A DNA stretch of 64,000 nucleotides from Actinomycetes bacterium (GTDB lineage Bacteria; Actinomycetota; Actinomycetes; Propionibacteriales; Nocardioidaceae), in the NCBI GenBank assembly GCA_023396115.1, contig JAEWXC010000051.1, positions 21,425 through 85,424 on the forward strand. The letters run 5' to 3'. The number at the start of each line of letters is the position of its first letter. The stretch's first letter is position 1. A program made the translations under genes and the position numbers. Shown piece after piece: positions 11,566 to 55,861 of the stretch. The notes below the pieces were generated by a model, which was not told the DNA's origin, did no database searches, and saw only the letters and a program-made list of their open reading frames with translations.

Positions 11566-11568
11566 GCC

Positions 11569-20068: not shown

Positions 20069-20296
20069 CGCGGTCGCCCGGACCGCGCACGCACCACCGC
20101 CGACATCACAGACCTGACCGCCCGTGTGAACGCGGTCACCGACCTCGTCAACGCGGACTCCGACCTGGGGATCGCGGTGCTCAAGTTCGTCGGTGTCCTA
20201 GTCGCCCTGGCCGTGTTCCTCGTCGGTACGGCCGGGGGTGTGACGGGGGGTGCACCTACGCTCCCCGACGCCACCCCCAACTCGAGGAGCACCCAC

Positions 20297-21007: not shown

Positions 21008-21011
21008 CCCC

Positions 21012-22723: not shown

Positions 22724-23240
22724 CGGCCTGCTTGTCGCGCTCCAACTGCTCCAGCCGCGCCATCGCCTTCGCCACGTCCGCGTTCGCCGCCTGCCCCTGC
22801 GCCACGTGCTTCCCCATCCGGGCCGCTGCAGTCGGGGTCAGGCCCAGGCGGGACCTGGACGACGACGCCCGCCCCTCGGCCCGATGCAGCAGCAGATACG
22901 CCGCCCGCACTGACTCCGACCCCAGGTCGCCCACCGGTTCGCCACACCGCTCGCCCTGCTTAGCCAGCCACTCGCTGATCAACTGCACCTGCGCCTCCGC
23001 ACGCCCCAAGGCGTACAACTCGGCTCGATACGCCGGCGCCTTCACGTACCCCGGCACTGTCGGATCAGCCAGCATGAGCGCCACGAACTCAGCCGCGAGC
23101 GGCTCAACCCAGCGCGGCGAGTACGCGCCGTGCGTCGACGCGGCCAGCGTGTTCCCCGGTTCGAACGGCGGCCGCTGCCCCGCGAACGCCGGCACCCAGC
23201 CGGCACCTGCGCGGGCATCCGTCTCCTGCGGTTCACCCAC
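22707..23240 (-). CDS. Putative terminase small subunit
   Basis: 177 aa, immediately upstream of terL and overlapping it by 17 nt. It has a helical C-terminus (RLGLTPTAAARMG...). The call is mainly positional. Confidence 0.55.
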   Translation of the reverse strand: MGEPQETDARAGAGWVPAFAGQRPPFEPGNTLAASTHGAYSPRWVEPLAAEFVALMLADPTVPGYVKAPAYRAELYALGRAEAQVQLISEWLAKQGERCGEPVGDLGSESVRAAYLLLHRAEGRASSSRSRLGLTPTAAARMGKHVAQGQAANADVAKAMARLEQLERDKQAGVGDG

Positions 23241-23844: not shown

Positions 23845-25154
23845 GCTGCGTGGTCTCCGTTCGGCTGGGGAGGTGTGGCGGTCTTGTCTTCCCTGTCACG
23901 ACCTCCCTCCCTATAAGGGAGGTTGGGGAGGTCGTTTGGCTTCCCTGCGGGGAGGTCTGGGGAGGTCAGGGAGGTCAGGGAATCTGGGTTGACTCCTGGG
24001 GCGAATCCGAAGAGCCGGGAGTTCCGCGGGCCGGCCTTGGAGACCAAGAGGGAGCCGCGGTCGGGGCGCTCGAGCATCTGCGCGGCGTTCTTGGCGTCGC
24101 CCTTGGAGTGGCGGATGTCTGCCTCGCCGTCCTTGATCATCTTGGCGATCGCGGTGTCGAGCTGGCTGGCGGAGACGAACTGGGGGTGGTGTTCGTGGAG
24201 CACCTCTAGTACCAGCGGGATGAGGGCTTCGCGTCGGCTGTACTCGGCGGCGGACCTCCGTGAGCCGGCGCCGTCGAGGGTCAGGAGCCGTGTTGTCTCG
24301 TTCATGGAGATCCGGTCTTCGGCGACCAGGACGTCGCGGCCTTCGGCGCGGAGGTAGCGGTGTCCGTCCTCGCCGCGGGTGACGTTGATGATGGTGTCCG
24401 CCCAGTCTTCGAGGGCGGTGGAGCCGCGGCTGCGTTCACCGTTCCAGCCGGCGTGTGCGGCGAGGACGATGTCACGGGCGCCGACTGCGCCGCGGCCGAA
24501 CCTGTCGAGGTCTGCGAGGAACCCGCCGACTTCGCCGGGGTCGTTCTGGTTGGTGCCGGTGAAGGCGCGGCCGAAGGGGTCGATGATCAGCATTTCGGTC
24601 TCCATCTCGCGCAGCTTCTGTGCGAGCGCGGTGGAGTCTTCGGGGCTCGCGAGTGGGTTCCGGCGGCCGCGGAGGTTCACCAGGAACATCCTGTCGTGCG
24701 GGATAGATAGGTCGTTGGCCCAGGCAGCGACGGTTTGTCCCGACACCTCGAAGTTGAGGAACGCGACCCGGCCGGTGAGCGGGGTGACGGGGAACTTGCC
24801 GAGGAAGTCTTCACCGAGCAGGGCGCTGCGCGCCAGGTTCAGCTGGAGCGACGTCTTGCCGGTCTTGCGTTGGGCGACGATCAGGGTGCCGCCGTCGGCC
24901 GGGATGATGCCCTCGGCACGGTGCTTCGGCTCCGGGGGGCGCGCCAGGATGTCAGCGAGTAGGCCCGCGTCGAACGGCGGGAGGCCTTCCGCGGCTGCTC
25001 GCTCGGCCCTGAGTCGCTCTCGGGCAGCGTCGCGGATCTTGAGTCGCCTGGTCTCGGTGGCGACCTGCTCGTTGAACTTGATCTGCTGATGCGCTTCGTC
25101 CCACTCGTCCGGGGGCGGCTCCAACTCGGTGGGGCCTCGCTCGATGTCGTTCAC
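23841..25154 (-). CDS. RepA-like RecA-fold AAA ATPase (AAA_25-type replication/helicase-loader-like protein)
   Basis: Start re-set to GTG 25154, overlapping the upstream stop (GTGA). Walker A LIVAQRKTGKTS and Walker B EMLIIDPFGRAF. The N-terminal 75 codons of the track ORF are P/R-rich and were rejected. Confidence 0.8.
   Translation of the reverse strand: MNDIERGPTELEPPPDEWDEAHQQIKFNEQVATETRRLKIRDAARERLRAERAAAEGLPPFDAGLLADILARPPEPKHRAEGIIPADGGTLIVAQRKTGKTSLQLNLARSALLGEDFLGKFPVTPLTGRVAFLNFEVSGQTVAAWANDLSIPHDRMFLVNLRGRRNPLASPEDSTALAQKLREMETEMLIIDPFGRAFTGTNQNDPGEVGGFLADLDRFGRGAVGARDIVLAAHAGWNGERSRGSTALEDWADTIINVTRGEDGHRYLRAEGRDVLVAEDRISMNETTRLLTLDGAGSRRSAAEYSRREALIPLVLEVLHEHHPQFVSASQLDTAIAKMIKDGEADIRHSKGDAKNAAQMLERPDRGSLLVSKAGPRNSRLFGFAPGVNPDSLTSLTSPDLPAGKPNDLPNLPYREGGRDREDKTATPPQPNGDHAA
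23900..23985. repeat. Iteron-like cluster: inverted repeat ACCTCCCT/AGGGAGGT plus at least 4 direct GGGGAGGTC-type repeats (candidate replication origin)
   Basis: ACCTCCCT (23901-23908) pairs with AGGGAGGT (23916-23923). GGGGAGGTC occurs at 23925, 23949 and 23959, GGGAGGTC at 23969, and a degenerate AGGGAATC at 23977. The cluster lies inside the last 50 or so codons of the RepA-like gene. Confidence 0.7.
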
Positions 25155-25507
25155 GCGGCGGCTCCGTGGGTGGTTCCGTGCCACTGGTTGGCGAGTTCGT
25201 TCATCACGGTGTCGATGTCGTGGTCGTCCTGGTCTTGGTGGGGGCCGGAGGGCAGGGTGGCGAGGGTGGCTCGGTGTCGGCATGCCTGTGCCTTGGCAGT
25301 GAGGAGATCCCACCGTCGCTGTCGATCGGCTCGGGTGACGTGTGTCGGGACGAAGTCGCCGGGGCGAGGGCGTGCCCACTCGTACTGCTCTGCACGCTTA
25401 AGCCAGTACTCGGCCGTCGCGTGGGCGAGGGCGTCCTGCAGTATCCGCCGTTGGAAGGCAACGACCTGTTCAACGAGGTCGCCGGCACGGTTGTTGGCCT
25501 GCGTCAT
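25151..25507 (-). CDS. Hypothetical protein
   Basis: 118 aa with 4-nt overlaps to both neighbours. Plausible composition (MTQANNRAGDLVEQVVAFQRRILQDALAHATAEYWLKRAEQYEW). Confidence 0.55.
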   Translation of the reverse strand: MTQANNRAGDLVEQVVAFQRRILQDALAHATAEYWLKRAEQYEWARPRPGDFVPTHVTRADRQRRWDLLTAKAQACRHRATLATLPSGPHQDQDDHDIDTVMNELANQWHGTTHGAAA

Positions 25508-25905
25508 GCGGCACCGCCTGGCGTGGTGGTGACCAGTCGGGCGACGTGGAGCTCCCGTCGGGGCGTCGCTTTGGGGCTCGTCGGGCGTGAGGGCCCTCCG
25601 GGCCCGGGGGTGGGTGGCTCGGGGATCCAGAAGCAGATGGCGCCGTACCAGGCGTTGCAGGCGCGGCTGGTGCCGACGAGTTCGAGGTGGTGGCCGCGGG
25701 CGACGGCCCGGCCCAGCTGGTCCAGCAGTCGGCTGTCGAGCTCGCAGGGGGTCTGGTGGTCGTGGACGGAGATCGTCACTACCTCGCCGGTCGGCTGGCT
25801 CTCGGCCAGGGCGGCGGCGTCGCTGAGTGCTTGGCGGCCGGTGGTGACGTCGATGACGTGGCGGACCGTGAGGGTTCCTTGCCTACGCGGAGTGTGGGAG
25901 GGCAT
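25504..25905 (-). CDS. Hypothetical protein
   Basis: Start re-set to ATG 25905 (MPSHTPRRQGTLTVRHVIDV...). The upstream part of the track ORF is P/S/R-rich. Confidence 0.5.
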   Translation of the reverse strand: MPSHTPRRQGTLTVRHVIDVTTGRQALSDAAALAESQPTGEVVTISVHDHQTPCELDSRLLDQLGRAVARGHHLELVGTSRACNAWYGAICFWIPEPPTPGPGGPSRPTSPKATPRRELHVARLVTTTPGGAA

Positions 25906-26227
25906 GGTGGGTGTGCTCCGATCCGTTGCTGTGGGGGTGAGCGTCAGTGGTGGCCGCCTCTTCGCCCGGGGCGGCCCTGCTGTTGTCGGGGGCCGGGAGG
26001 CCGAGGATCTGTGCGGCGGTGTCTGCTGGCAGGCCGAGGGTCTCGGTGAGGAACCGGTGAGCCGGCACGACGCGGCGTTGCGTGCCCAACTGCAGGCTGG
26101 GGATCCGGCCTTCGCGTGCGGCCTGGTAGGCGGTGGCGCGGGAGATTCCGAGGATCTGGCCGGCTTCGTCAACACCGAGGGTGAGGCGGCCACGCAGGTC
26201 CTCGACGGCCAGGTGCCGGGTTGTCAC
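25883..26227 (-). CDS. Excisionase-family HTH DNA-binding protein (second Xis-like gene)
   Basis: GTG 26227 overlaps the upstream stop (GTGA). The HTH is LTLGVDEAGQILGISRATAYQAAREGRIPSLQLGTQRRVVP. Confidence 0.55.
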   Translation of the reverse strand: MTTRHLAVEDLRGRLTLGVDEAGQILGISRATAYQAAREGRIPSLQLGTQRRVVPAHRFLTETLGLPADTAAQILGLPAPDNSRAAPGEEAATTDAHPHSNGSEHTHHALPHSA

Positions 26228-26412
26228 GCCGTCCGCTCCCCGGTGAACGCCGCTTCGATCCACCGGTCCACATCCGAAGCGCGGTACATGACACGCCGAC
26301 CGATCCGCGCGGCCCTGGGGCCGACGCCTCGGTACCGCCAGTCCTGCAGCGTGGTCACCGGGACGCGCAGGATCTCCGCAACTTCCTCGCTCATGAGCAG
26401 CCGCTCCGCCAT
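26224..26412 (-). CDS. xis: Excisionase / AlpA-type HTH protein
   Basis: 62 aa. LLMSEEVAEILRVPVTTLQDWRYRGVGPRAARIGRRVMYRASDVDRWI is a classic HTH_17 excisionase fold signature. The gene is divergent from the repressor-integrase pair. Confidence 0.75.
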   Translation of the reverse strand: MAERLLMSEEVAEILRVPVTTLQDWRYRGVGPRAARIGRRVMYRASDVDRWIEAAFTGERTA

Positions 26413-26530
26413 GAATATTCTCCAATCGGTTGACGTTCATCCCGTCAGGGATTACCGTCAACCTAACGAACCAATCGGACTGAACCCAGACCTTTCGGGG
26501 GTACAGTCCAACCCCATGGAGGATATTTCG
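26413..26530. promoter_or_regulatory. Divergent switch region between xis and the XRE repressor, with nested repeats (candidate operators)
   Basis: Direct repeat CCAATCGG (26422 and 26471). Inverted repeats GGTTGACG (26428) / CGTCAACC (26456) and TGACG (26431) / CGTCA (26443). Confidence 0.5.
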
Positions 26531-27043
26531 ATGGCCCGAACGATCACCGAACTGCCGGCCGACTTGGCCGAGCGCATCCGCGACCTACGAAAGACCCGCG
26601 ACCTGTCGCAGGAAGCGCTGGCCGGTCGCATGCAGGCACTCGGCCTGACAGGGTGGCGACAGACCACGGTGGCCAAGGCTGAGGCGAAAGAACGCCCTCG
26701 CGCACTCACCGCCCAGGAAGTGGTCGCCCTCGCTGCAGCCTTCGACCTTGGGAGCGTGACCGAGCTCTTCCCGGAATCCATCGAGTCGAGCCTCGCCGAC
26801 CGAGCCGTGGGGATCCACGTCGGACAGCTCGAGCGACTCCGGGAGCGCCTCGAGGGGCTGGCGCCGAGCGCATCACCGGAGCACCGAAGGTCCGTGGATG
26901 AGCAGGTGGCGCGACTGGGAGCGATCCTCGGTGAGACCTCCGAGATCGTCACGGACCGGGCCTTGGACCGTCGAATGGTGCTCGCCGAACTCCTCGACGA
27001 GCTCGGCCGATTGCCGGGTCCGGGCGCGGAGGAACCGCGATGA
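26531..27043 (+). CDS. XRE-family (Cro/CI-type) HTH repressor
   Basis: ATG 26531 is preceded by GGAGGA 7 nt upstream; an alternative ATG is at 26516. The HTH is IRDLRKTRDLSQEALAGRMQALGLTGWRQTTVAKAE. The stop overlaps the integrase start (ATGA). Confidence 0.75.
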   Translation: MARTITELPADLAERIRDLRKTRDLSQEALAGRMQALGLTGWRQTTVAKAEAKERPRALTAQEVVALAAAFDLGSVTELFPESIESSLADRAVGIHVGQLERLRERLEGLAPSASPEHRRSVDEQVARLGAILGETSEIVTDRALDRRMVLAELLDELGRLPGPGAEEPR

Positions 27044-28368
27044 GTGGAGTGTTCCGTCGGTGCGGTTGCCGCACCCCTGACGGCAAGCAGTACGGCACCC
27101 TGGGCGACAAGCCGACCGAGGCACAGCAGGCCCGGGCGTGCCCGACGATGCTGGCCGACCCGAAACACGGCAGCTGGACGTTCCGCCTGTCGGCCGGCTT
27201 CGACCCGATCAGCGGGAAGCGCCGCCAGATCAACGGCCGCGACTACGGCGGCCCCTGGGCGACGAAGCGTGACGCCCAGCAGGCCCGGAACAAGGCCGCG
27301 GTCGACATCGACCAGGGCAAGCAGCACACCCGCTCGCGGATCACCTTCGCCGAGTACCTCCCCGACTGGCTCGAGCGACGCATCGTGATGAACACCAAGG
27401 CGAAGAAGCCACTGGCGCCCTCCACGATCGACAACTACAGCCGGTACGTGACCCGGGACATGATCCCCTCCGCCCTAGGCGCGATGCAGCTGCGGGACAT
27501 CCGACGCCGCGACGTCCAGGCGTTCGTCGACGCCCTGGCCAAGCAGCGCGGCGCCGTCACGACGGCTCGGATCGTGGCTGTGGTCCAGGGAGCGTTCACG
27601 CAGGCCGTGATCGACGACCTGATCCCGGAGACGCCGGCACATCACCTGTCGCTACCGCCGATCGCGAAGAAGGAGATGGCGGTGTGGGAGCCGGCGCAGG
27701 TGGGGCACTTCCTCGACGTCGCGTCTCAGCACCGGCTGGGGGCGTTGTTCGAGCTAGCGATCTTCACCGGCCTTCGGCGCTTCGAACTGGTGGGGCTGGA
27801 CTGGTCTGACATCGACCTGCCCAACCGGGAGCTGCGGGTCGGGAAGTCCAAGACTGACGCGGGTGTGCGCAGGGTCGCGCTCGACGACCGTTCGGTGGGC
27901 GCTCTGGTCGCGTGGCAGATCGCGCAGGCAGCTGAGCGTGCTGCGTGGGGGGACGCGTGGGTCGACAGTGGCCGGGTGTTCACCTACGAGAACGGGGAGC
28001 CGCTGAAGCTGCAGTACGCGACGCGGCTGTTCGACAAGATCCGCAAGCAGGCAGGGCTGCCGAAGATGACGTTCCACGGGCAGCGCCACCAGCAGGCCTC
28101 GCTGCAGCTTGCCGCCGGCACCGACATCGCTGTGGTGTCGAAGCGGCTGGGGCACTCGAGCGTGGCCGTGACCGCAGACATCTACGCACACCTGCTCCGT
28201 TCGAAGGACCACCAGGCGGCCAACGACGCCTCGGCGCTGGTGCCTGGACGGGCCCAGATTCAGCCGCCGCAGACCCCTGTCGAAGAGGGCTGTGCACACA
28301 CGCTGCACACGCAAGGGGGTGAGAACGAGGAAGAGGCCGCCCCCGCGATCCGCGGGAACGGCCTCTGA
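27040..28368 (+). CDS. int: Tyrosine site-specific integrase
   Basis: 442 aa. N-terminal MSGVFRRCGCR...HGSWTFRL arm-binding-type domain. Catalytic region has RRFELVGLDW, HGQRHQQASL, LGHSSVAVTADIYAH. It ends 9 bp before attR and 17 bp before the tRNA-Pro 3' end. Confidence 0.9.
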   Translation: MSGVFRRCGCRTPDGKQYGTLGDKPTEAQQARACPTMLADPKHGSWTFRLSAGFDPISGKRRQINGRDYGGPWATKRDAQQARNKAAVDIDQGKQHTRSRITFAEYLPDWLERRIVMNTKAKKPLAPSTIDNYSRYVTRDMIPSALGAMQLRDIRRRDVQAFVDALAKQRGAVTTARIVAVVQGAFTQAVIDDLIPETPAHHLSLPPIAKKEMAVWEPAQVGHFLDVASQHRLGALFELAIFTGLRRFELVGLDWSDIDLPNRELRVGKSKTDAGVRRVALDDRSVGALVAWQIAQAAERAAWGDAWVDSGRVFTYENGEPLKLQYATRLFDKIRKQAGLPKMTFHGQRHQQASLQLAAGTDIAVVSKRLGHSSVAVTADIYAHLLRSKDHQAANDASALVPGRAQIQPPQTPVEEGCAHTLHTQGGENEEEAAPAIRGNGL

Positions 28369-28376
28369 CCTGCACT

Positions 28377-28426
28377 TTCTTCGGTCGGGCTGACAGGATT
28401 TGAACCTGCGACCCCCTGACCCCCAG
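28377..28426. repeat. attR: 50-bp exact direct repeat overlapping the tRNA-Pro 3' part
   Basis: Identical to 12716..12765. It covers tRNA positions 32-73 plus 8 nt downstream. Confidence 0.9.
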
Positions 28427-28458
28427 TCAGGTGCGCTACCAAGCTGCGCTACAGCCCG
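28385..28458 (-). tRNA. tRNA-Pro: tRNA-Pro (anticodon GGG)
   Basis: The 74-nt minus-strand sequence folds by hand into a cloverleaf: CGGGCTG-TA-GCGC-AGCTTGGTA-GCGC-A-CCTGA-CTGGGGG-TCAGG-GGGTC-GCAGG-TTCAAAT-CCTGT-CAGCCCG-A. The acceptor stem is perfect. CCA is not encoded. Confidence 0.9.
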
Positions 28459-28560
28459 ATGCCGACGAATCGGTGGAAGCCCGATCCGACGGCGAGGTGA
28501 ACAGTACCGCAGGGAGACCGGCTCCCTCACATCGGGGTGTCCCCGGGTGTCGGTGCCGGT

Positions 28561-39004: not shown

Positions 39005-39297
39005 CTGGTGGCTCCTCGGGACGGATCGGGCAGCGGACTGCCGGGCAAGTGCGGTGCTCCCCGTTGGCGCCAGGAGCTTTGTCGACTTCACGACACCGCG
39101 TGGCGCGACTCTAGGACCCCGGGTCGACACGCTTCAAGGCGCCCCCGGAAACCCCCAGCCGGTCCGGTGATTCTGTGCGCACCGGCCCGCGTGCCTGCAC
39201 AGGTCGGAGCGTCCTGTGCAGAACCCTGTGCACGACACGCGGGGGCGCCACGAGGTGTGGCCGTCGAGCGCAGCGGCCCCGCACTGACCACGCTCAC

Positions 39298-44068: not shown

Positions 44069-46540
44069 ATGACGATGCTGAGCCTGACCCGTGAAGAGGC
44101 CGCCGCCCGGACGGCGCTGCTGACCGTCGACCGCTACGACATCGAGGTCGACATGACCGGCCTGTTGGAGGGTGCTCGGTGGAGGTCGGTCAGCACGGTC
44201 ACGTTCGGGTGCCGCACCCCCGGCGCCGAGACGTTCGTGGACTGTGCCGGCGACGTCGTCCGGGCCTCGCTGAACGGCCGCGACCTGGACGTCAGCCGGG
44301 TCTCGGGTGGCCGGTTGCCGCTGGCTGACCTGGCTTCCGAGAACGTGCTCGTGCTCGAGCAGACCTGCGACAACACCGCCTCGGGCGAGGGCATCCTGCG
44401 CACCGTCGACCCGACCGACGGGGGTGTCTACGTCTGGACGTCCCTGGAGCCCGACGAGGCACGACGGTTGTGGGCCTGCTTCGACCAGCCCGACCTGAAG
44501 GCGCCGCACCGGTTCACCGTGCACGCCCCCGAGGCGTGGAAGGTCGCCTCCAACGGGGCGCCGGAGTCGATCGGTGAGCCGCACGACCGCGCCGGGGTGT
44601 CGGCGCGGACCTGGAGCTACCCCGACACTCCCCCGCTGTCGACCTACGTGGTCGTGGTCAACGCGGGCCCGTTCCACGAGGTGCGCCGCCAGGTGGACGG
44701 CTACGACCTGGGCTTCTACTGCCGCCAGTCGCTGGTGCCGCACCTGGAGCGAGACCTGGAGGAGCTGGTCACCCTCACCCGCCAGGGCCTGGCCTTCTTC
44801 GGCGAGCAGTTCGGCATCGCCTTCCCGCAGGAGCGCTACGACCAGGTCTTCGTGCCCAACCTCGGCGGTGCGATGGAGAACTGGGGGTGCGTCACCTACG
44901 GCGACAGCCAGCTGTTCCGCACCCCGCCCAGCCACCAGCAGCGTGCGGTGCGGGCCGAGTTCGTGCTGCACGAGATGGCGCACATGTGGTTCGGCGACCT
45001 GGTCACCATGCAGTGGTGGGACGACCTGTGGTTGAACGAGGCCTTCGCCTCGTGGGCGGCCAACTGGGGCCTGGCCGAGGCCACCGAGTTCTCCGACCAG
45101 TGGGCCACGCACCTGGCGCAGTCCAAGAAGCTGGCCTACGACATGGACCTGGGGCCGGCCAGCCACCCGATCCGGGCCGACGTCCCGGACGTGACCCGGG
45201 CGATGGCGAACTTCGACGTCATCACCTACGAGAAGGGCATGTCGGTCCTGCACCAGTTGATGGCCTGGGTGGGCCGGGACGCCTACATCGCCGGCCTGCA
45301 GGACTACTTCGCCCGGCACGCCTGGGGCAACACGGTGCTCGACGACCTGATGGGGGCCTTCGGTCGTGCCGCCGGGCAGGACCTGGGCGCGTGGACCGCG
45401 GCCTGGCTGGACCGCTCCGGCCCCGACCAGATGCGCCTGCTGGCCCGGGACGGGGTCCACGTGGTGGAGCTGAGCTCCCCCGACGAGGCGAAGCCCCGCC
45501 CGCACCGGGTCGACATCGCCAGCTTCGACACCTCCAGCGGCCGCCCGGTCCCGACCGGGCGCACCGAGGTCCGGCTCACCGAGGAAGCCACCCCGGTGGA
45601 CCTGCCCTCGGGTGACCTGCACCTGCTCAACGCCGGCGACCACACCTACGCGGTGGTCCGGGTCGACCCGGCGGAGCTGGCCGCGATGGTGGAGGCGCTG
45701 CCGCACCTGACCGACCCGCTGGACCGGGCCCTGGTCGTGATGACGGCGCACCAGCAGCTCCTGCTCGGCGCCGCCGCTCCGCGTGACGTGGTCCGCGCAC
45801 TCGCCCAGGGGCTGCGTGCCGAGACCAACCCGGCCCTGGTGGAGCCGATGCTCAGCCTGGCCACGCTGGTGGCCGACCGGTGGGCAGCCCCCGCCGAGCA
45901 GCCCGCCCTGGTGCGCGAGCTGGCCGACGCCGCGGCCGTGGTTGCCGCCTCGGGGCAGAACCTGCAGCCGGCCCTGCGGGTGCTCGCCTCCACCGCCAGC
46001 ACGCCCGAGCACTGGGCCGTGGTCGATGCCGCGGTCGCCGGGGAGTCGGACCTGGACCTGGCCTGGCGGGCCGCGATCCGGCGCGCCGAGACCGAGGGCG
46101 TCGACAGGGCAGCGCTGGAGGCGTTGCTGGCCGCCGACCCGGACCCCGACGCGGCCACCACCCGCCGGCTGAAGGTGCTCGCGGCCTCCCGGGAGGAGTG
46201 GGCGAAGGAGGAGGTGTGGAGGGCGTTCTTCGTCGACCGGTCCATCCCGGCCTCGCGCGACACCCTCGAACTCGGTGCCACGTTCTGGCGGGTGCCGCAG
46301 AGCGACCTGCTGCAGCCGTTCGCGCTGCGCTACCTGGAGGAGCTCACCCGGTTGACCGGTGGGCTGCTCAACCAGGGGGTCGTGATCCGGGCGATGTTCC
46401 CCCAGGGCGTCGGCGACGAGGCCTTCCTGGCCCGGGCCCGTGAGGTCGCCGAGTCCGGCACGGTCAGCGCCTATGCCGCCAACCAGTTGCGTGCAGGTGC
46501 CCACACGCTGAGCAGGATCCACGCAGCCCGGGCCCTGTGA
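44069..46540 (+). CDS. pepN: Aminopeptidase N (M1 family)
   Basis: Start re-set to ATG 44069 (MTMLSLTREEAA). GAMENWG, HEMAHMWFGDLVTMQWWDDLWLNEAFA. Confidence 0.9.
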   Translation: MTMLSLTREEAAARTALLTVDRYDIEVDMTGLLEGARWRSVSTVTFGCRTPGAETFVDCAGDVVRASLNGRDLDVSRVSGGRLPLADLASENVLVLEQTCDNTASGEGILRTVDPTDGGVYVWTSLEPDEARRLWACFDQPDLKAPHRFTVHAPEAWKVASNGAPESIGEPHDRAGVSARTWSYPDTPPLSTYVVVVNAGPFHEVRRQVDGYDLGFYCRQSLVPHLERDLEELVTLTRQGLAFFGEQFGIAFPQERYDQVFVPNLGGAMENWGCVTYGDSQLFRTPPSHQQRAVRAEFVLHEMAHMWFGDLVTMQWWDDLWLNEAFASWAANWGLAEATEFSDQWATHLAQSKKLAYDMDLGPASHPIRADVPDVTRAMANFDVITYEKGMSVLHQLMAWVGRDAYIAGLQDYFARHAWGNTVLDDLMGAFGRAAGQDLGAWTAAWLDRSGPDQMRLLARDGVHVVELSSPDEAKPRPHRVDIASFDTSSGRPVPTGRTEVRLTEEATPVDLPSGDLHLLNAGDHTYAVVRVDPAELAAMVEALPHLTDPLDRALVVMTAHQQLLLGAAAPRDVVRALAQGLRAETNPALVEPMLSLATLVADRWAAPAEQPALVRELADAAAVVAASGQNLQPALRVLASTASTPEHWAVVDAAVAGESDLDLAWRAAIRRAETEGVDRAALEALLAADPDPDAATTRRLKVLAASREEWAKEEVWRAFFVDRSIPASRDTLELGATFWRVPQSDLLQPFALRYLEELTRLTGGLLNQGVVIRAMFPQGVGDEAFLARAREVAESGTVSAYAANQLRAGAHTLSRIHAARAL

Positions 46541-46566: not shown

Positions 46567-46599
46567 CCGCCGCCCGTACCGCTCAGGTGCGGGCGGCGG
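46567..46599. terminator. 10-bp perfect inverted repeat at the pepN/nurA convergence point
   Basis: CCGCCGCCCG (46567-46576) pairs with CGGGCGGCGG (46590-46599) and overlaps the nurA stop codon. Confidence 0.4.
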
Positions 46600-47554
46600 C
46601 CTGTTGCAGGGCCCGCAGGACGAACGTGGGTTCACCCAGCCGGTGTCGCAGGTCCCGTTCGAGCCCGGCGATCGGGACGAGGTTCTGGGGTGCGCGGGAG
46701 TCCTTGTACTCGACCGAGGCGAACCGGGGCAGCAGCCGCTGGGTGAGTCCGGCCAGCGCGGTGACCTCGGGCAGCTCCAACTCGGCGCTGCACTCGATGC
46801 GCACCACCCCGGCCCACGGGGCACCGGGTCGGCCGGGCAGCCGCAGGTACCAGGCGTAGCGCTCCCAGGTGGTCCCCATGAGGAAGACCGGGGTGCGTTC
46901 GCCGGGTGCGAGCAGTGCGACCTGCAGGTTCAGCTCCTCGGGCAGGTAGGTGGCCCGGTGCGACTTGATGAACCCGATCGTCCGGGGCAGGTGCTGGCGC
47001 CCCCGCAGCGGCCCGTCGACCACAACCAGGTCGTCCTCGACGCCGTGGAGGTGGTCGGTGCTGCGGGCGGTCAGGGTGGTGAGCAGCTCCAGGTCGGCCA
47101 GCTGCCCCTGCAGCGCGGCGTTGAGGAGCTGGGCGGGGGCCTGGTCGTCGGCCGCGGCGACCGCGTGCCGGGTGAACTCCCCGGCCCGGGTCGGCAGCGG
47201 GGCGGCGTCCGGGGCGGTGGTGAACAGTCCCCGTCGCTGTTCGGCCAGCAGCACGTGGGCCCCCAGATCGCAGCAGCACACCACGCCGGCTCCCCAGGAG
47301 GCCGCGACCCCCAGGTCGGCGTTGGTGCCGTCGGCGGACCCGGCCCACACCCGGGCCTCGATCCGGCGCACCCCGTCGACGAAGAGCACCCGCCCCGGCT
47401 CGGGGCCTTCCGGCACGCAGACCGGCGCCCAGTCCTCGGCGCTCCGTTCGACGTCCACGGTCACCCGGGCGGTCGAGACGAACCCCTCCGGCTCCCCCAG
47501 GTCCTCCACCGAGGAGCCGTAGGAGGGGTCCCAACCGTCGATGAAGTACTTCAC
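46583..47554 (-). CDS. nurA: NurA-like nuclease
   Basis: Start re-set to GTG 47554, overlapping the sbcC stop (GTGA). NurA-type blocks VLFVDGVRR, LVVVDGPLRG and TIGFIKSH. It is the last gene of the herA-sbcD-sbcC cluster. Confidence 0.7.
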   Translation of the reverse strand: MKYFIDGWDPSYGSSVEDLGEPEGFVSTARVTVDVERSAEDWAPVCVPEGPEPGRVLFVDGVRRIEARVWAGSADGTNADLGVAASWGAGVVCCCDLGAHVLLAEQRRGLFTTAPDAAPLPTRAGEFTRHAVAAADDQAPAQLLNAALQGQLADLELLTTLTARSTDHLHGVEDDLVVVDGPLRGRQHLPRTIGFIKSHRATYLPEELNLQVALLAPGERTPVFLMGTTWERYAWYLRLPGRPGAPWAGVVRIECSAELELPEVTALAGLTQRLLPRFASVEYKDSRAPQNLVPIAGLERDLRHRLGEPTFVLRALQQAAART

Positions 47555-50500
47555 AACGCCTCGCGCTCGACCCGGGAGGTCAGGTGGTCCCGGGTGACCC
47601 GGAACCTGACCGGGGTCCGGTCGGCCAGCGCCTGCACGTGGGTGACCACCCCGACCATTCGTCCCTGGGCCAGGTTCTCCAGTGTCGCGGCGACGGTGTC
47701 CAGTGAGTCGGGGTCCAGGGTGCCGAACCCCTCGTCGAGGAAGATCGACTCCAGCCGCACCACGCCACCGGCCGCCAGGGCTGCGAGCTGCTCGGACAGG
47801 GCGAGCGCCAGGGCCAGGGAGGTCTGGAACGTCTCGCCGCCCGACAGCGTCTTCACCGAGCGGGTGGAGTCGGCGTCGAAGTGGTCGACGACGTAGAACT
47901 CGCCCTTGTCGTGGGTCAGCGAGAACTGTCCGCCGGACAGCTCGTCGAGGCTGCTGGAGGCTCCGGTGACCAGGGTGTCCAACGCGGCCCCGGCGAGCCA
48001 CTGCTGGAACTTGTCGGCCCGCAGGAGGCTGGCCAGCTCGGCGGCGACCCGTTGCCGTTCGGTGGCCTCGGTGATCCGTCGGACGAGGTCGGCCTGTCGC
48101 TCCAGGTCCTTGCGGGCCCCGGCCAGCCGGTCCCGGGTCTCGGCGCGGGCGACGGCCAGTCCCTCCACCGAGGTCCGCGGGTCCTGGCCGAGTGCCTGGT
48201 GCTCGTACTCGATGCCGTGCCCGTCCAGCAGCGCGCCGAGCTCGGTGACGCGGGCGTCGCGCCGCTGCCCGGCCTCGGCGGCTGCGGCCAGGGACGCGTC
48301 GCGTTCGGTGTGCAGCTCCACGACCCGCTCGGTGGCCCAGCTGACCAGCCGGACCCAGCACCCGTGCAGGTCCTCGTCCAGCTCGCTGGCCGGGAACCCG
48401 GGCGGCTGGGCGCCGCTGACCCGGTCCCTGGCGGTGTCGAACGCCTCCCGGTCGGCCCGGGTGGCCTGCACCGCCTCGTCGTGGCGCTCCGCGGCCGTCC
48501 GGTGCGCCTCGCGCTGGCTGTCGCGGTGGGCTCGGGCCTCGGCGGCGACCCGGGCGAGCTCGTCGGCCCGGGTCAGCTGTTCGGAGAGCTCGTCGGCGCT
48601 GGGCGCGTCGGTGAGGATCTCGTCGAGCTGGCCGACCCGCTCGCGGCGTGCTGACAGGGTGGCGCTGGTGCGCGCCAGCTCGGTCCGGAGTCGGGTGAGT
48701 TCGGCTCCGGTGGCCTCCGCCGCGGCCGCGGCCGCGGTCCCGTCGTTGACCACCTGTTCGAGGGCTGCGGTGGTGCTCGTGTGCTGCAGGTGGGCTGCGG
48801 GCAGGACCTCCTCGACCGTGCGGTGGTGCAGGTCGCGTGCCCAGTCCACCAGCGCGGTCCAGTCGGCGTGCAGGGAGGCAGGATCACCCGACGGGGCGGG
48901 AGCCCCGTCCGCGGCGTGCTGCTCGGACCGGGACACCAGGCGCTGGGCGGCGACGGTGTGCGCGGTCTGCGCGCGGCGCAGGTCCTCCTCGGCGTCCTTG
49001 AGCACCTTCTCCAGGCCGCTCAGGCGCTGGCGGTGGTCGGACTGCTCGGCCCGCAACCGGCTCCCCTGCGCGTTCGCCGCGTCCAGCGCCGCGCGGAACC
49101 GACCGGTGCAGGTGCGCAGGGACTCCGGGTCCGCCGGGAGGTCGGTGGCGCCGGTTCCGAGCGTGTCGACCAGGGCAGCGAGGTCCTCGATGAGCGCCTC
49201 GCGCTCCCAGGTGTGGCGCTGCTGCTCCTGGTCGCGCTCGCGACCCAGCTGGTCAGCCCGGCGGCGGGACTCCTCCTCCACCGTCCGCGCCTGCTCGGCG
49301 CGGGTCTGGGCGTCGACGAGCGCGGCGGAGGTGTCGCCGGCAGCGGGCAGCACGCTCACCTGCTGGGTGCAGACCGGGCAGTCGTCGCCGACCTGCAGGT
49401 CGGCACGCAGCGCGGCAGCGCGGTCGTCGCGCCGCCGCCGGTGCAGTTCGTCCTCGGCGGCCTCGTACACCTGCTGGTGCCGCTCGTTCTCGGCGACGGC
49501 GTCGGCGTGCTGCTGGTCCAGCTCCCGGCACCGGTCCGCGGCCGTGTGCCAGGCCTCCCAACGCTGTGCGAACCGGTCGACCGCCTCCAGGCGTCGGCGG
49601 AGTTCGTCGGAGGGCGGAGCCGTCTCGAGTTCCGCGGTCACGGCGTCGAGCGCACGCTGGGCGTCCGCGACGTCCTGCTCCGCGGCGCCGACCGCGCTGC
49701 GGGCTGCCGGCTCACCGGCGGCGGTGTCCAGCTCGTCGGGGACGGTGAGGCCACTGGTGCGCGCCGCCAGGGTGCTCGCCCGCTCGACGGCGGCGGCCGC
49801 GTCCCGGTCCGCCTGGGCAGCCGACTGGTGGCCGGCGCGCAACTCCTCCAGCCGGTCCCGGGCGGTGGTGTCCGCGACGAGAGCGGCCTCCTCCTGCGAC
49901 CGCAGGTCGGTCTCCTCGCGGGTCAGGTCGGCCACCTGGGCGACCAGCCCGTCACGTTCCTCGCGGGCCGAGGCGATCTGTTCCAGCGCCGGGCGCGTGG
50001 GGTGGACGGCCACGGCGTTGGCAGCCGCATCGGCAGCGCCCTCCGCGGTGGCGACTGCTTCGGTGGCCGTCGCGAGGGCGTCGCGTGCGTCCAGGAGCGC
50101 GTCGTGCCGTGCGGTGAGACCTTCGGGAACCGCCAGGTAGGACAGGGTCGCGGCCAGGTCGGTCGCCCGGGTTCCGCTGACCCGGGCAGCCTCCTCGGTC
50201 TGGCCGAGCGCGACCAGCTCGTCGACGGCGGCCTGGACGGGTGCCACGGCCGCGTCGAGGGCGGTGAGGTCCGCCGCCAGCTGCTCGACCTGCTCGGGCG
50301 TGCTGGTGCTGCCCCGCCCGTGCTGGTCGGTCAGCAGGTCCAGTTGGGTCTGGGCCTGCTTGGCGCGGGCGTTGGCGGCCCGCCGCATCCGCTCGTAGGC
50401 GTCACCGCCCAGGAGCTTGAGCAGGATCGTCTGCCGCTCGGCCCGCGTGGCCTTGAGGAACCGGGCGAACTCCCCCTGCGGGAGCACGACGCACTGGCAG

Positions 50501-50952
50501 AAGTCGTCAAACTCCATGCCGAGCAGCTCGACCACGGCCGGCGTCATCCGGCGGGCCTCCCCGGCCAGCACCTCGGTGGCGGTCTCCTCGCCCGGCAGCG
50601 GCAGCGCCCGGGGGTCGAGGAAGCGTTCCAGCAGTGCGCCCTTGGTCTGCACCGTTCCGGCCCCGCCGCTGCGGCGGACCTCGCGGACGGCCTGGTACCG
50701 CTCGTCGCCGAGGTCGAAGACCAGCCGGACGGTGGCGCGGTTCTTGGTCGGGGCGAGCGCGTCGCCCACGGCGTTGGCCCGGCCCCAGCGCGGGGCGGTG
50801 CCGTAGAGGGCGAAGCAGATCGCGTCGATCAGCGTCGACTTGCCGGACCCGGTGTTGCCGACGAAGGAGAAGTAGTCGGCATCGGTGAAGTCGACGCTGG
50901 CGGACTCACGGAACGACGCGAAGCCGTCGACGTCGAGGCGTACGGGGCGCAT
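47551..50952 (-). CDS. sbcC: SbcC/Rad50-family SMC-like ATPase
   Basis: Start re-set to ATG 50952 (MRPVRLDVDGFASF), sharing 1 nt with the sbcD stop. Walker A GNTGSGKST, a central CPVC zinc hook inside long coiled coils, signature LSGGETFQ, and Walker B IFLDEGFGTLD. Confidence 0.85.
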   Translation of the reverse strand: MRPVRLDVDGFASFRESASVDFTDADYFSFVGNTGSGKSTLIDAICFALYGTAPRWGRANAVGDALAPTKNRATVRLVFDLGDERYQAVREVRRSGGAGTVQTKGALLERFLDPRALPLPGEETATEVLAGEARRMTPAVVELLGMEFDDFCQCVVLPQGEFARFLKATRAERQTILLKLLGGDAYERMRRAANARAKQAQTQLDLLTDQHGRGSTSTPEQVEQLAADLTALDAAVAPVQAAVDELVALGQTEEAARVSGTRATDLAATLSYLAVPEGLTARHDALLDARDALATATEAVATAEGAADAAANAVAVHPTRPALEQIASAREERDGLVAQVADLTREETDLRSQEEAALVADTTARDRLEELRAGHQSAAQADRDAAAAVERASTLAARTSGLTVPDELDTAAGEPAARSAVGAAEQDVADAQRALDAVTAELETAPPSDELRRRLEAVDRFAQRWEAWHTAADRCRELDQQHADAVAENERHQQVYEAAEDELHRRRRDDRAAALRADLQVGDDCPVCTQQVSVLPAAGDTSAALVDAQTRAEQARTVEEESRRRADQLGRERDQEQQRHTWEREALIEDLAALVDTLGTGATDLPADPESLRTCTGRFRAALDAANAQGSRLRAEQSDHRQRLSGLEKVLKDAEEDLRRAQTAHTVAAQRLVSRSEQHAADGAPAPSGDPASLHADWTALVDWARDLHHRTVEEVLPAAHLQHTSTTAALEQVVNDGTAAAAAAEATGAELTRLRTELARTSATLSARRERVGQLDEILTDAPSADELSEQLTRADELARVAAEARAHRDSQREAHRTAAERHDEAVQATRADREAFDTARDRVSGAQPPGFPASELDEDLHGCWVRLVSWATERVVELHTERDASLAAAAEAGQRRDARVTELGALLDGHGIEYEHQALGQDPRTSVEGLAVARAETRDRLAGARKDLERQADLVRRITEATERQRVAAELASLLRADKFQQWLAGAALDTLVTGASSSLDELSGGQFSLTHDKGEFYVVDHFDADSTRSVKTLSGGETFQTSLALALALSEQLAALAAGGVVRLESIFLDEGFGTLDPDSLDTVAATLENLAQGRMVGVVTHVQALADRTPVRFRVTRDHLTSRVEREAL

Positions 50953-52154
50953 CAGGCGGTCCCTCCTGCCGGCGTGGCGGTGCTGGGCTGGTGTCCGGTG
51001 GTCTCGTCGTGCAGCTCGTCGAACAGGGCGGTGACCCGCTCGTCCTGACTGCCGACCTCGGCGCTGTAGCTGGCGAACAGCTCGCGTGGCGTCACCTGGG
51101 CGACCTGGGCCTGACTGACCCGGGTCCGGGTGAGCTGGTCGGGGTCCGGCTGGACGTGGATCTCCAGCGCGTTCGGCAGGGCCTCGAGGATGTCGTCGCG
51201 CAGCCCGGCGTAGGTGGTCTGGGTGACCCGGACCCGCAGCCACTCCTCGGACAGCTCCTCGGACCGGGAGCGCAACTCCTCCACGCTGCCCTCCACGGTC
51301 CGCAACCGCCGGGGCGAGGTGAGCTCGAGGTCGGTCACCCGGGCAGGACGCCCCGGCTCGGCCTCCACCAGCAGCACGCTGGGGGTGTAGTCCTCCTCAC
51401 CGAAGTCGACCCGCAGCGGAGCCCCCGAGTAGTGCACCGGGCAGTGCGAGGCGACCTCTTGGCGACGGTGCAGGTGGCCCAGCGCCACGTAGTGCGAGTC
51501 CGTGGGGAAGATGGTGGGCGCCACGCTGTACTCGAAGATGGTCTGGGCGCTGCGCTCGCCACCGCCCTGGATGCCGCCGATGGTGGTCAGGTGCGCCATC
51601 ATCAGGTTGACCCCGTCGGGGTCGTAGCCCTCGCCCAGGTGGGTGACGAAGTTGCGCACCCACTGCTCGTAGGCACCGGAGTTGCGGGCCGGAACGTTGT
51701 CGCCGGGGGCGATCAGCTGGGCGCCGCGCACCGCGTCGCGCTGCGAGAGGAACGGCAGCATGCCCACGTTCACCGACGCCCCGTCGCTGCGGGCGGTGAA
51801 GGTGTGCACGCCACCCTTGTCGCGGGGCCGGACCTGACCGAAGAGTTCGATGCCGGCCACCTCCATCAGCGGCCGGTACGCCTCGAACGTGCGCCCGTGG
51901 TCGTGGTTGCCGGCGATCGCCAGCACCTTGATCCCGTCCCGGGCCAGGGCGAGCAGCACCTGGACCACCAGCCGCTGGGCGTCAGCGGTGGGTGCGGCGC
52001 TGTCGTAGACGTCGCCGGCGATGAGCACCGCATCCACGTCGTGGGTCCGGGCCAGGCCGACGATCTCCGAGAGCACTTCGCGCTGCTCGTCGAGACGCGG
52101 GCGGCCCTTGAGGGTCTTGCCGACGTGCCAGTCGGCGGTGTGCAGGAACTTCAC
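50952..52154 (-). CDS. sbcD: SbcD/Mre11-family nuclease
   Basis: 400 aa with phosphoesterase motifs HTADWHVG, AGDVYD, GNHDH, GHLH. Confidence 0.9.
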   Translation of the reverse strand: MKFLHTADWHVGKTLKGRPRLDEQREVLSEIVGLARTHDVDAVLIAGDVYDSAAPTADAQRLVVQVLLALARDGIKVLAIAGNHDHGRTFEAYRPLMEVAGIELFGQVRPRDKGGVHTFTARSDGASVNVGMLPFLSQRDAVRGAQLIAPGDNVPARNSGAYEQWVRNFVTHLGEGYDPDGVNLMMAHLTTIGGIQGGGERSAQTIFEYSVAPTIFPTDSHYVALGHLHRRQEVASHCPVHYSGAPLRVDFGEEDYTPSVLLVEAEPGRPARVTDLELTSPRRLRTVEGSVEELRSRSEELSEEWLRVRVTQTTYAGLRDDILEALPNALEIHVQPDPDQLTRTRVSQAQVAQVTPRELFASYSAEVGSQDERVTALFDELHDETTGHQPSTATPAGGTA

Positions 52155-52206
52155 GCAGGACTCCGGTGGGTCTGGACAGGTGCAGTGGGCAGGGAGGGAG
52201 CCGGAC

Positions 52207-54003
52207 TCAGAACGGTGCCGGGTCGGTGTCGAAGCCGAACGTGTCGTCGACGTCGGGCAGCAGGTCGAACGGGTCGCGGGCAGCCGGCCCGGCGGCGGCG
52301 TCGCCGGGGGCGCTGCCGCTGCTGAACGTCGGGTCCACGACTTCGGAGAGCCGGGTGGCCCAGGCCGGGAACGGGAACTCCACGGCCAACGGCACCGGGA
52401 TCTCGGGCTGGGTGACGAACATGGTGCCGGGTTTGGCGAGGGTGGCCCGGGCCCGCTGGGAGCGGGGCAGGAACCCGTACTCGGGGCGCCCCGCCTCGGC
52501 CGGGTCGAGCCGCCCGACGATCTTGATCGAGGAGTTGGACACGATGCGCCGCTCGACCTCGCTGGCCGTCTGCTGCGCCCCGATCAGGATGATGCCCAGC
52601 GACCGACCGCGTTCGGCGATGTCGAGGAGCACCTCCTTGATCGGGGAGGAACCGTCCCGGGGGGCGTACTTGTTGAGCTCGTCGAGCATCGTGAACAGCA
52701 GCCCACCGGCGCCGGCCTGCTCCTTGCGTTCGGTCTCACTCGCCAGCACCACACCGACGACGAACCGCTGGGCCCGGTCGTGCAGCGCGTGCAGGTCGAC
52801 CACGGTGACCTGCTGGCCGCTGGTGGAGATCCGTCGACCGGGGCTGTCGGTCAGGTCGCCGCGGATGATCGGGGTGAGGTGACGCACCGAGGAGCGCAGC
52901 CGCCGGATGAACGCGTTGACCGTGCCGATGCCGGTGACCGGTCCGGCCCACCGGCGCCGGGTGAGGTCGTCCTCGCTGGAGACCTTCTCGCAGATCAGCT
53001 CGACCAGGTCGGGCCAGGTGCGCACGGTCTGACCGTCGATGTTGACCGCGCCGTCGTTGCCGGCCGGGACCGCGTCCTGGGCGAGCCGGGCAGCGACCTG
53101 GTGGATCACCATCGTGTACTGCTGCCGCTCGTCCTCGGTGTCCGCGAAGACGTAGCGCAGCAGCTCGCGCTCACACAGCTCGGCCAGGCTCCACCAGAAC
53201 GACTGCACCCCCGAGGTGCGGCCGGTGACGTGCGGACGACCGGTGGGGTCACCGGGCGCCGGCGGGGCGAAGAAGCCGACCGATCCGAACGGCTGCGCCG
53301 CGAGCCCGAGGCGCGCGTAGCCGACCCGGTCGACGTCCCGCAGCCGGGAGTTGGCCTGGTCCAGGAAGAGCAGGTCCTCGCCCTTGACCGAGAAGATCAG
53401 CGCCTTCGCGTTGACCGCGCGGGGACCCAGGGCACCGGAGGTGAAGACCGAGTGCAGAAGGAACAGCGCGAAGCTGGTCTTGGTGGCGACCCCGGAGATC
53501 CCCGAGATGGACACGTGCGCGCCGCGGGTGCCGTCCAGGAACTCCAGGTTGAGGTGGACCGGCGCCCCGTCCCGGCCCATCCCGACCGGGACCCGGTGCT
53601 CCATCTGGTCGAAGTAGAGCGCTTGGTCGCGGGTGCTGCCGGTGGCCCGGTGGGCTGCCTCCCCCGGGCGCGGCGGGACGTACCGCTCGGGTTCGACCCG
53701 GGTGGTGGTCACCTCGGCGACCTCCTGCACCTGGGCGGGCATGATCCCGTCGGCGATCAGGAACACGTCGGACCCGAAGGTGGCCCCCTCGTGCCGTGAC
53801 ACCACGTCGGTCACGACCCCGGAGGTGGTCACCGTGCCGACGCCGGGGACCTCGCGGCTGGTGGTCACCACGTCGTCGAGCTGGAGGTAGGCGTCCTCGG
53901 CGATGGCGACGTGGAACTTCAGCGGTGTCGAGTCGACGGTGCCGGTCACCATCCCCACGGGCGGGGCCCCGGTCTCCTCGACGGGCTGCTGCTCCTGGGT
54001 CAC
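52207..54003 (-). CDS. herA: HerA-like (FtsK-HerA superfamily, DUF87-type) ATPase
   Basis: 598 aa. N-terminal barrel-like segment GMVTGTVDSTPLKFHVAIAEDAYLQLDDVV, P-loop-like ISGISGVATKTS, and Walker B LLFTMLDELNKYAP. GTG start with GGTAGGAGG upstream. Confidence 0.8.
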   Translation of the reverse strand: MTQEQQPVEETGAPPVGMVTGTVDSTPLKFHVAIAEDAYLQLDDVVTTSREVPGVGTVTTSGVVTDVVSRHEGATFGSDVFLIADGIMPAQVQEVAEVTTTRVEPERYVPPRPGEAAHRATGSTRDQALYFDQMEHRVPVGMGRDGAPVHLNLEFLDGTRGAHVSISGISGVATKTSFALFLLHSVFTSGALGPRAVNAKALIFSVKGEDLLFLDQANSRLRDVDRVGYARLGLAAQPFGSVGFFAPPAPGDPTGRPHVTGRTSGVQSFWWSLAELCERELLRYVFADTEDERQQYTMVIHQVAARLAQDAVPAGNDGAVNIDGQTVRTWPDLVELICEKVSSEDDLTRRRWAGPVTGIGTVNAFIRRLRSSVRHLTPIIRGDLTDSPGRRISTSGQQVTVVDLHALHDRAQRFVVGVVLASETERKEQAGAGGLLFTMLDELNKYAPRDGSSPIKEVLLDIAERGRSLGIILIGAQQTASEVERRIVSNSSIKIVGRLDPAEAGRPEYGFLPRSQRARATLAKPGTMFVTQPEIPVPLAVEFPFPAWATRLSEVVDPTFSSGSAPGDAAAGPAARDPFDLLPDVDDTFGFDTDPAPF

Positions 54004-54050: not shown

Positions 54051-54072
54051 ACGGTAGGTCACTCCCCCGACA
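54051..54072 (-). promoter_or_regulatory. Candidate RecA-NDp (PafBC-type) DNA-damage promoter upstream of herA
   Basis: The minus strand reads TGTCGGGG-gagtgacc-TACCGT, against the consensus tTGTCRgtg-N8-TAnnnT. The -10-like hexamer ends 47 nt before the herA GTG. Confidence 0.5.
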
Positions 54073-54113: not shown

Positions 54114-54139
54114 GGACGACGACGGGCCGCACCCGTGGG
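54114..54139 (-). terminator. Stem-loop downstream of pyrG
   Basis: GGGCCGCACCC-gtgg-GGGTGCGGCCC starts 30 nt after the pyrG stop (54170). Confidence 0.55.
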
Positions 54140-54169
54140 GGTGCGGCCCGGCGTGGTGCTCGGAGTCGA

Positions 54170-55861
<1,692 letters not shown>

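Follow-up and report, generated by a model that had tools for sequence, protein, structure and literature searches.

A conserved herA-sbcD-sbcC-nurA operon of Actinomycetota predicted to encode a two-stage DNA-end-processing machine

In archaea such as Sulfolobus and Pyrococcus, four genes of DNA-end processing are found in the operon order herA-mre11-rad50-nurA (PMC4351679), with a proposed division of labour in which Mre11-Rad50 performs the initial processing and HerA-NurA the long-range 5' resection; the genes are essential in Sulfolobus (PMC4351679). In characterised HerA-NurA systems, DNA is translocated, unwound at a pin of NurA and digested mainly on the 5' strand (PMC9960219, PMC3326311). 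The closest characterised homologue of the proteins described here, the NurA-HerA complex of Deinococcus radiodurans (PDB 7F6D, 7WRW and 7WRX), is encoded by a two-gene nurA-herA operon, and its link to SbcCD has been stated to be unknown (PMC4663267). A third arrangement, nurA-herA-sbcD-sbcC, occurs in Oceanithermus profundus, in one genus of the Thermales (PMC5448004). Here we describe a cluster of herA, sbcD, sbcC and nurA in a 64,000-nucleotide stretch of an Actinomycetes bacterium (contig JAEWXC010000051.1, positions 21,425 to 85,424; hereafter the window). An earlier interpretation made from the letters by a model (the sequence-only reading) had called it an operon of archaeal order.

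This chromosomal operon probably encodes a two-stage DNA-end-processing machine that serves recombinational repair under a PafBC-type damage-response control. In the first stage, SbcD-SbcC, the bacterial counterpart of Mre11-Rad50, would recognise double-strand ends, hairpins and blocked ends, and open or clip them in an ATP-dependent manner. In the second, a HerA hexamer would dock on a NurA dimer and the duplex would be threaded through the HerA pore; the NurA pin would then split the duplex, with mainly the 5' strand digested during ATP-driven translocation and the resulting 3' tail left for RecA. A PafBC/RecA-NDp-type promoter upstream of herA would drive transcription, placing the operon within the LexA-independent damage response of Actinomycetota. 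We infer complex formation, the hand-over from SbcCD to HerA-NurA, PafBC induction and a part played in vivo in recombinational repair from the observed gene structure, homology, conservation of catalytic residues, gene order and motif conservation.

All four genes lie co-directionally on the minus strand of the region 46583-54003 (Table 1). The spacing that the sequence-only reading had given was confirmed throughout: herA and sbcD are separated by 52 nt, the sbcD and sbcC genes meet in a TGATG junction, where the A of the sbcD TGA is also the A of the sbcC ATG, and sbcC and nurA overlap by GTGA. The genes sbcD, sbcC and nurA are translationally coupled, with herA linked more loosely. An independent gene caller, run on a public metagenome scaffold with this sequence, gave the same junctions and the same four product lengths. 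The cluster has a G+C content of 0.71-0.76, the same as that of its flanks.

Table 1. Positions of the features discussed. Coordinates are those of the window unless a comparison locus (L number) is named; aa, amino acids; nt, nucleotides.
Feature	Position	Strand	Remarks
herA	54003..52207	-	598 aa; GTG start, AGGAGG 6-7 nt upstream
sbcD	52154..50952	-	400 aa
sbcC	50952..47551	-	1133 aa
nurA	47554..46583	-	323 aa
PafBC/RecA-NDp-type 22-nt motif TGTCGGGGGAGTGACCTACCGT	54051..54072	-	-69 to -48 from the herA GTG
Hairpin GGGCCGCACCC-CCAC-GGGTGCGGCCC	54124..54149	-	perfect 11-bp GC stem, 21 nt past the pyrG stop
Second match to the motif pattern, TGTCGACCCGGGGTCCTAGAGT	39108-39129	-	about 100 nt upstream of a parA-like gene, then scpA and scpB
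PafBC-type motif upstream of sbcD, split loci	L004, L006, L007, L011, L026, L033, L040		starts -29 to -31
PafBC-type motif upstream of sbcD, split loci	L079, L080		Cryptosporangium; starts -60
Insert at the herA/sbcD junction	L007 11773-19790
Insert at the herA/sbcD junction	L014 11744-14910
Insert at the herA/sbcD junction	L079 12594-14383
herA homologue, cyanobacterial	L082 8998-10764
herA homologue, Chloroflexota	L083 8551-10374
TIGR02680/TIGR02678/DUF2397 genes	L081 1-6391		Streptomyces sp. BB1-1-1
ImmA/IrrE-family metallopeptidase	L081 7150-8322	-	Streptomyces sp. BB1-1-1
ImmA/IrrE-family metallopeptidase	L083 6726-7460	+	Candidatus Chlorohelix
pyrG	54170-55855	-	upstream of herA; ends 166 nt before herA
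pepN	44069-46540	+	downstream of nurA, convergent
Prophage-like block	~9000-28460		ends beside a tRNA gene
Phage minor tail / tape-measure protein	14422-17217	-	prophage-like block
Terminase large subunit	21281-22723	-	prophage-like block
AAA_25 RepA-like ATPase	23841-25379	-	prophage-like block
tRNA gene	28385-28458	-

The first gene product aligns over residues 13-292 and 316-566 with HerA of the D. radiodurans complex, which we take to be DR_0836/DR_0837 (PDB 7f6d_B; phmmer E 4.8e-137). The two proteins share the unusual Walker A motif GISGVATKTS, which occupies residues 168-177 in the window protein and contributes K175/T176. Following strand β2, the stretch VKGEDLLFLD (206-215) carries the catalytic acidic pair E209/D210, and the Walker B motif is MLDELNKYAP, with D441/E442. 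Mutating the residues equivalent to K175/T176, the acidic pair and D441/E442 in D. radiodurans HerA abolishes ATPase activity and resection (PMC9960219). The product is therefore predicted to be a hexameric DNA translocase ATPase from the FtsK/HerA superfamily and of the D. radiodurans type.

Profile searches with this protein returned no Pfam or NCBIfam match, even at E<=10, and its cyanobacterial and Chloroflexota homologues (Table 1) had no Pfam-A match either. Since actinobacterial, cyanobacterial and Chloroflexota members are all unmatched, Pfam-A is blind to the whole Deinococcus-type bacterial HerA clade. Only 471 clusters matched HerA at E<=1e-30 among 1.84 billion representatives clustered at 50% identity; at 90% clustering, the homologues number more than 8000. 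The best 120 of these have identities of 72-100% to the window protein; they are titled 'ATP-binding protein' or 'DNA helicase HerA-like ATPase' and belong to Streptomyces, Pseudonocardia, Nocardioides, Microlunatus, Thalassiella and Kineosporiaceae. Between actinobacterial families, HerA identity is 70-86%, and the family is compact and slowly evolving.

The product of nurA matched D. radiodurans NurA (7f6d_H; phmmer E 5.5e-18) and Thermotoga maritima TM1739 (1zup; 7.7e-5), and scored 15 bits against Pfam PF09376, below the cutoff of 21. An AlphaFold2 model built with 36 homologues as input reached a predicted local distance difference test score (pLDDT) of 87.5 and a predicted template-modelling score (pTM) of 0.86. 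In a Foldseek search the model superposed best with 7f6d_G (E 4e-19, TM-score 0.66), followed by 1zup and then Sulfolobus solfataricus NurA (2ygk); the archaeal protein was reached by fold only, at a TM-score of 0.41. Residues W8, D60, K197 and R287 align with W8, D53, K201 and R309 of D. radiodurans NurA and are invariant in 36 actinobacterial homologues. When these residues are mutated in D. radiodurans NurA, nuclease activity or unwinding is lost or reduced (PMC9960219). The protein is predicted, from alignment and model, to be a 5'-3' exo/endonuclease of RNase H-like fold and bacterial type. Structural similarity also extends to TdpB, a component of the TdpAB complex (8wfd_G, E 5.5e-6), to endonuclease V and, at a weak level, to the PIWI domain of Argonaute, as fits a shared RNase H-like fold.

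Among 5202 NurA homologues, nearly all are titled 'hypothetical protein'. Failure of the profiles, with no model for HerA and a score below the PF09376 cutoff for NurA, therefore explains the labels 'ATP-binding protein' and 'hypothetical protein' given to the two genes. The profile check proposed by the sequence-only reading thus divided the cluster: SbcD and SbcC passed, and HerA and NurA had no significant Pfam or NCBIfam match, yet are clear homologues of the D. radiodurans proteins. Its functional assignments proved right for all four genes, through profiles for SbcD and SbcC and solved D. radiodurans homologues for HerA and NurA, and every motif that it had quoted was found (HTADWH, GNHDH, GNTGSGKST, CPVC, LSGGETFQ, FVDGV, VVDGPL and GFIKSH).

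SbcD matched the Pfam families Metallophos and SbcD_C, and TIGR00619 (sbcd) with 164 bits against a cutoff of 77.65. Phosphoesterase motifs I-V are all present (HTADWH, GDVYD, GNHDH, MAHL and GHLH), and the product is predicted to be an Mn-dependent phosphoesterase nuclease of the Mre11 family. SbcC matched AAA_23 and SbcC_Walker_B above the Pfam cutoffs; its best NCBIfam model is TIGR00618 (sbcc), with E 2.1e-68 and 231 bits, below the curated cutoff of 478.5. The ATPase head comprises a Walker A motif at residues 32-40, a Q-loop at 157-162, the signature LSGGETFQ at 1036-1043, a Walker B motif at 1070-1077 and an H-loop at 1102-1106. Roughly 870 residues separate the two halves of the head, and midway between them lies a CPVC zinc hook, at residues 525-528 of 1133. 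These features point to a Rad50-family ABC ATPase whose long coiled coil carries a zinc hook at its centre. Since the residues checked in all four products are conserved, all four look catalytically competent.

The gene order is identical to that of the archaeal operon, for which we take SSO2251-2248 to be the Sulfolobus locus, and the same four functional families are present. The identical order could suggest that the archaeal herA-mre11-rad50-nurA operon was recently acquired by horizontal transfer. We regard such a transfer as extremely improbable, because the proteins are of bacterial types. SbcD matched bacterial sbcd models at about 1e-48 and archaeal Mre11 at 3e-16, the latter over its N-terminus only, and SbcC matched sbcc at 2e-68 and Rad50 at 3e-23. 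Sequence searches with HerA and NurA found no archaeal solved structure, returning Deinococcus and Thermotoga proteins instead, and archaeal NurA came up by fold at the TM-score given above. Moreover, the cluster matches its flanks in G+C content and is conserved throughout the phylum. Thus the archaeal order claimed by the sequence-only reading stands as an order, by the listing in PMC4351679, whereas the proteins are, by their profile scores, SbcD, SbcC and Deinococcus-type HerA and NurA, with archaeal homologues detected weakly or by fold. Archaeal NurA further differs in lacking the pin-like unwinding motif of bacterial NurA (PMC9960219). Essentiality of the kind seen in Sulfolobus is unlikely for the window operon, because other bacterial resection pathways exist.

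To place the locus in its phylum, one genome per GTDB species was scanned, yielding 80 loci in which gene order was determined by tblastn with the window proteins; 62 of these had enough downstream sequence to be informative. The order herA, sbcD, sbcC, nurA on one strand was found in 53 of the 62, spanning at least 10 genera, including Nocardioides, Amycolatopsis, Lentzea, Kineosporia, Jatrophihabitans and Streptomyces, and the gap between herA and sbcD is shorter than 400 nt in 41 of those 53. In six further loci sbcD-sbcC was seen before the locus ended, and in three there was no sbcD within 10 kb of herA. Two Streptomyces replicons carry the same order, with PGAP labels that read 'ATP-binding protein / exonuclease SbcCD subunit D / SMC family ATPase / hypothetical protein'. 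By this survey the four-gene arrangement is the rule in Actinomycetota rather than a rarity. The caveat that the cluster might prove both universally conserved and already characterised held for its first half, wide conservation, and failed for its second: the locus is uncharacterised in Actinomycetota and orthologous to a known system.

Outside the phylum, one cyanobacterial and one Chloroflexota plasmid (Sphaerospermopsis and Candidatus Chlorohelix) carry nurA-herA-sbcD-sbcC, with the identity of NurA confirmed. These clusters and that of Oceanithermus profundus resemble the window operon in linking the same four families co-directionally. They differ in placing nurA before herA, whereas in Actinomycetota nurA comes last and is translationally coupled to sbcC. 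A second contrast is offered by D. radiodurans, where nurA and herA form a two-gene operon (PMC4663267); in the window, herA and nurA bracket sbcD-sbcC within one operon, and the families and critical residues are the same.

All-against-all clustering of GC3-filtered open reading frames from 83 loci recovered no fifth conserved gene: only the four genes, antisense artefacts and generic ABC ATPases emerged. With no fifth gene and variable flanks, the four genes appear to form a self-contained module of variable chromosomal position. In Pseudonocardia and Cryptosporangium the herA/sbcD junction is a repeated insertion point (Table 1), with the overlapping sbcD-sbcC-nurA part left intact. The inserts encode a LacI regulator, parts of a sugar ABC transporter, an AMP-binding enzyme, an S51 peptidase and proteins without a Pfam match. 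We considered them as accessory factors and rejected this, as they are unrelated metabolic genes, none of them DNA-related. As a separate observation, a gene for an ImmA/IrrE-family metallopeptidase adjoins the cluster in Streptomyces sp. BB1-1-1 and Candidatus Chlorohelix, and the 64-kb window contains no gene of this type. IrrE-type proteases control the radiation response of Deinococcus.

Upstream of herA lies a 22-nt element, TGTCGGGGGAGTGACCTACCGT, which fits the RecA-NDp/PafBC promoter motif, tTGTCRgtg-N8-TAnnnT. Searching both strands with the pattern TGTCR-N11-TANNNT gave two matches in 64 kb against 0.28 expected, this element being one of them. Of 79 related loci, 40 carry the same pattern upstream of herA, where an empirical background over all loci would yield about 0.65, and at least 10 differing sequence versions are present among the 40 copies. 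Where herA and sbcD are split, the motif is found upstream of sbcD in nine loci. In the seven of these where it starts 29-31 nt before the sbcD start codon, the transcript would be nearly leaderless. A search for the LexA SOS box (TCGAAC-N4-GTTCGA, up to two mismatches) found none near the operon. In published descriptions, the PafBC site is 22 nt long and has a conserved TGTCGG at its 5' end (PMC8682763), and sbcD of Mycobacterium smegmatis is reported to belong to the PafBC regulon (PMC11348249). The window element resembles that regulon in its length, its 5' TGTCGG and 3' TAnnnT, its promoter distance and its retention in orthologous loci. Because the 22-mer recurs upstream of herA and of split sbcD genes, no LexA box was found and sbcD is reported as PafBC-regulated in M. 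smegmatis, the operon is predicted to be induced by DNA damage in a LexA-independent, PafBC-dependent manner.

The second match to the pattern in the window, TGTCGACCCGGGGTCCTAGAGT, precedes the parA-like gene; with 0.28 matches expected in each window, it may be due to chance. Between pyrG and herA we also found a hairpin (Table 1) whose stem is part of both the minimum-free-energy and the centroid folds of the intergenic region; the z-score of the overall fold was not significant, no T-tract follows, and a consensus terminator scan made no call there. The hairpin likely marks the end of the pyrG transcript and would keep pyrG apart from the herA operon. A scan for sigma-70 consensus promoters found nothing in 46.3-54.4 kb, and the sole terminator-like match of the terminator scan lies inside herA on the wrong strand.

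Since ATPases of the HerA and SMC kinds recur in anti-phage systems, the sequence-only reading had allowed for a defence role, in which the module would degrade incoming linear or unprotected DNA in the manner of Sir2-HerA, DUF4297-HerA, TdpAB, Wadjet or Lamassu. PADLOC models do match HerA (mad8, 2.8e-8; defence-type HerA models, 1e-4 to 4e-3) and SbcC (mad3, 3.4e-26; LmuB, 2.2e-18), but the matches span only generic P-loop and ABC-head regions, for HerA in its C-terminal half, and are far weaker than those to SbcC (2e-68) and D. radiodurans HerA (5e-137). Similarly, the chromosomal location of the cluster differs between genera and the NurA model resembles TdpB (8wfd_G), yet there is no compositional anomaly, HerA is 70-86% identical between families, and the promoter motif is of the DNA-damage type. 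Genes of the defence type lie close by in two cases: TIGR02680, TIGR02678 and DUF2397 genes, which we take to be Wadjet-type (JetABC-like), stand about 2.5 kb from the cluster on a 451-kb linear replicon of Streptomyces sp. BB1-1-1, and the Chlorohelix cluster is near TIR and HEPN genes. Against this, only the four genes are conserved, with no Sir2, DUF4297 or other effector partner. We found no membership of the locus in the HerA-containing anti-phage systems Sir2-HerA, DUF4297-HerA, TdpAB and MADS, the HerA of PDB 8xau matching at E 0.09. HerA occurs in 6 of 72,556 plasmid records, with two weak phage matches and none in viral contigs, and its near-absence from plasmids and phages argues against a defence island. 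Overall, the suggested defence role found little support, and we judge it quite improbable.

In the window the cluster stands in the block recN, steA-like, mctB, pyrG, cluster with pepN, NUDIX, xerD-like, DEAD-DUF3516 helicase, parA-like, scpA and scpB, an otherwise typical actinobacterial block that the module and pepN interrupt. Gene calls thus upheld the reported flanks, pepN and pyrG within a conserved block. The company of recN, xerD-like, parA-like, scpA and scpB genes raises another reading, in which the module acts mainly on intermediates of replication (forks that are reversed or converging, hairpins, palindromes), or pumps and clears DNA during chromosome segregation. This neighbourhood is lineage-specific, however: the suggested synteny survey of the pepN-pyrG junction found pyrG, pepN or the NUDIX gene within 10 kb in none of the 80 loci, and no flanking gene is conserved. 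PafBC is reported to respond to replication-fork perturbation, and sbcD has been cited as a fork-repair gene (PMC11348249); in addition, the D. radiodurans deletion phenotype is not simple sensitivity, and HerA has been viewed as an FtsK-analogue translocase, an idea of Iyer et al. as cited in PMC2288612. The closest characterised homologue, however, resects the ends of linear duplexes (PMC9960219). Although sequence data cannot separate fork processing or segregation from break repair, we consider this reading unlikely as the main role.

For end processing in recombinational repair, our preferred reading, operon structure, gene linkage seen in four phyla and a common promoter motif place SbcCD and HerA-NurA in one predicted pathway. 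Several points weigh against it. In Actinomycetota, resection is already served by AdnAB and RecBCD. By the pattern used, the motif is missing from about half of the related loci, and the 64-kb window contains no pafBC gene. The SbcD and SbcC proteins share domain architecture, catalytic motifs and overlapping genes with SbcCD of Escherichia coli and Bacillus subtilis, but TIGR00618 (sbcc) and the 'equivalog' NCBIfam models for sbcD/sbcC fall well below their curated cutoffs and the window sbcDC pair is embedded between herA and nurA; the two proteins may be diverged paralogues rather than canonical SbcCD. We found no experiment on any actinobacterial member in the searchable literature. Finally, deletion of nurA-herA made D. 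radiodurans about 10-fold more resistant to ultraviolet light and mitomycin C (PMC9960219), so that a simple requirement for repair is not guaranteed.

More speculatively, SbcCD, HerA and NurA might be physically coupled into a 'resectosome' controlled by PafBC. Alongside AdnAB and RecBCD, it would provide Actinomycetota with a third route of end resection, specialised for hairpin-capped, protein-blocked or fork-derived ends. We put this forward tentatively, as a possibility rather than an expectation. To our knowledge, the hand-over from Mre11-Rad50 to HerA-NurA has so far been inferred only for hyperthermophilic archaea, in which all four genes are essential; if a resectosome exists, the operon would offer the first bacterial setting for a genetic dissection of this hand-over, in tractable hosts such as Streptomyces, Amycolatopsis and Nocardioides.

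What is new here is that standard profiles miss HerA and NurA, that the 'archaeal' order extends across a phylum while nurA comes first elsewhere, and that a PafBC-type motif is conserved; current understanding is not overturned by these findings. A conserved, translationally coupled operon with a damage-type motif provides strong genomic evidence that SbcCD and HerA-NurA work together, and the LexA-independent (PafBC) damage response gains a predicted member. Across thousands of actinobacterial genomes, the names assigned by annotation pipelines, 'ATP-binding protein' for the first gene and 'hypothetical protein' for the last, leave the HerA-NurA identity effectively invisible; this gap would be closed by a profile built specifically for the Deinococcus-type clades of HerA and NurA.

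Elsewhere in the window, a prophage-like block containing genes for a tail or tape-measure protein, a terminase large subunit and a RepA-like ATPase ends beside a tRNA gene (Table 1). The block has a lower G+C content, 0.66-0.70, and a strong negative GC skew at 18-24 kb.

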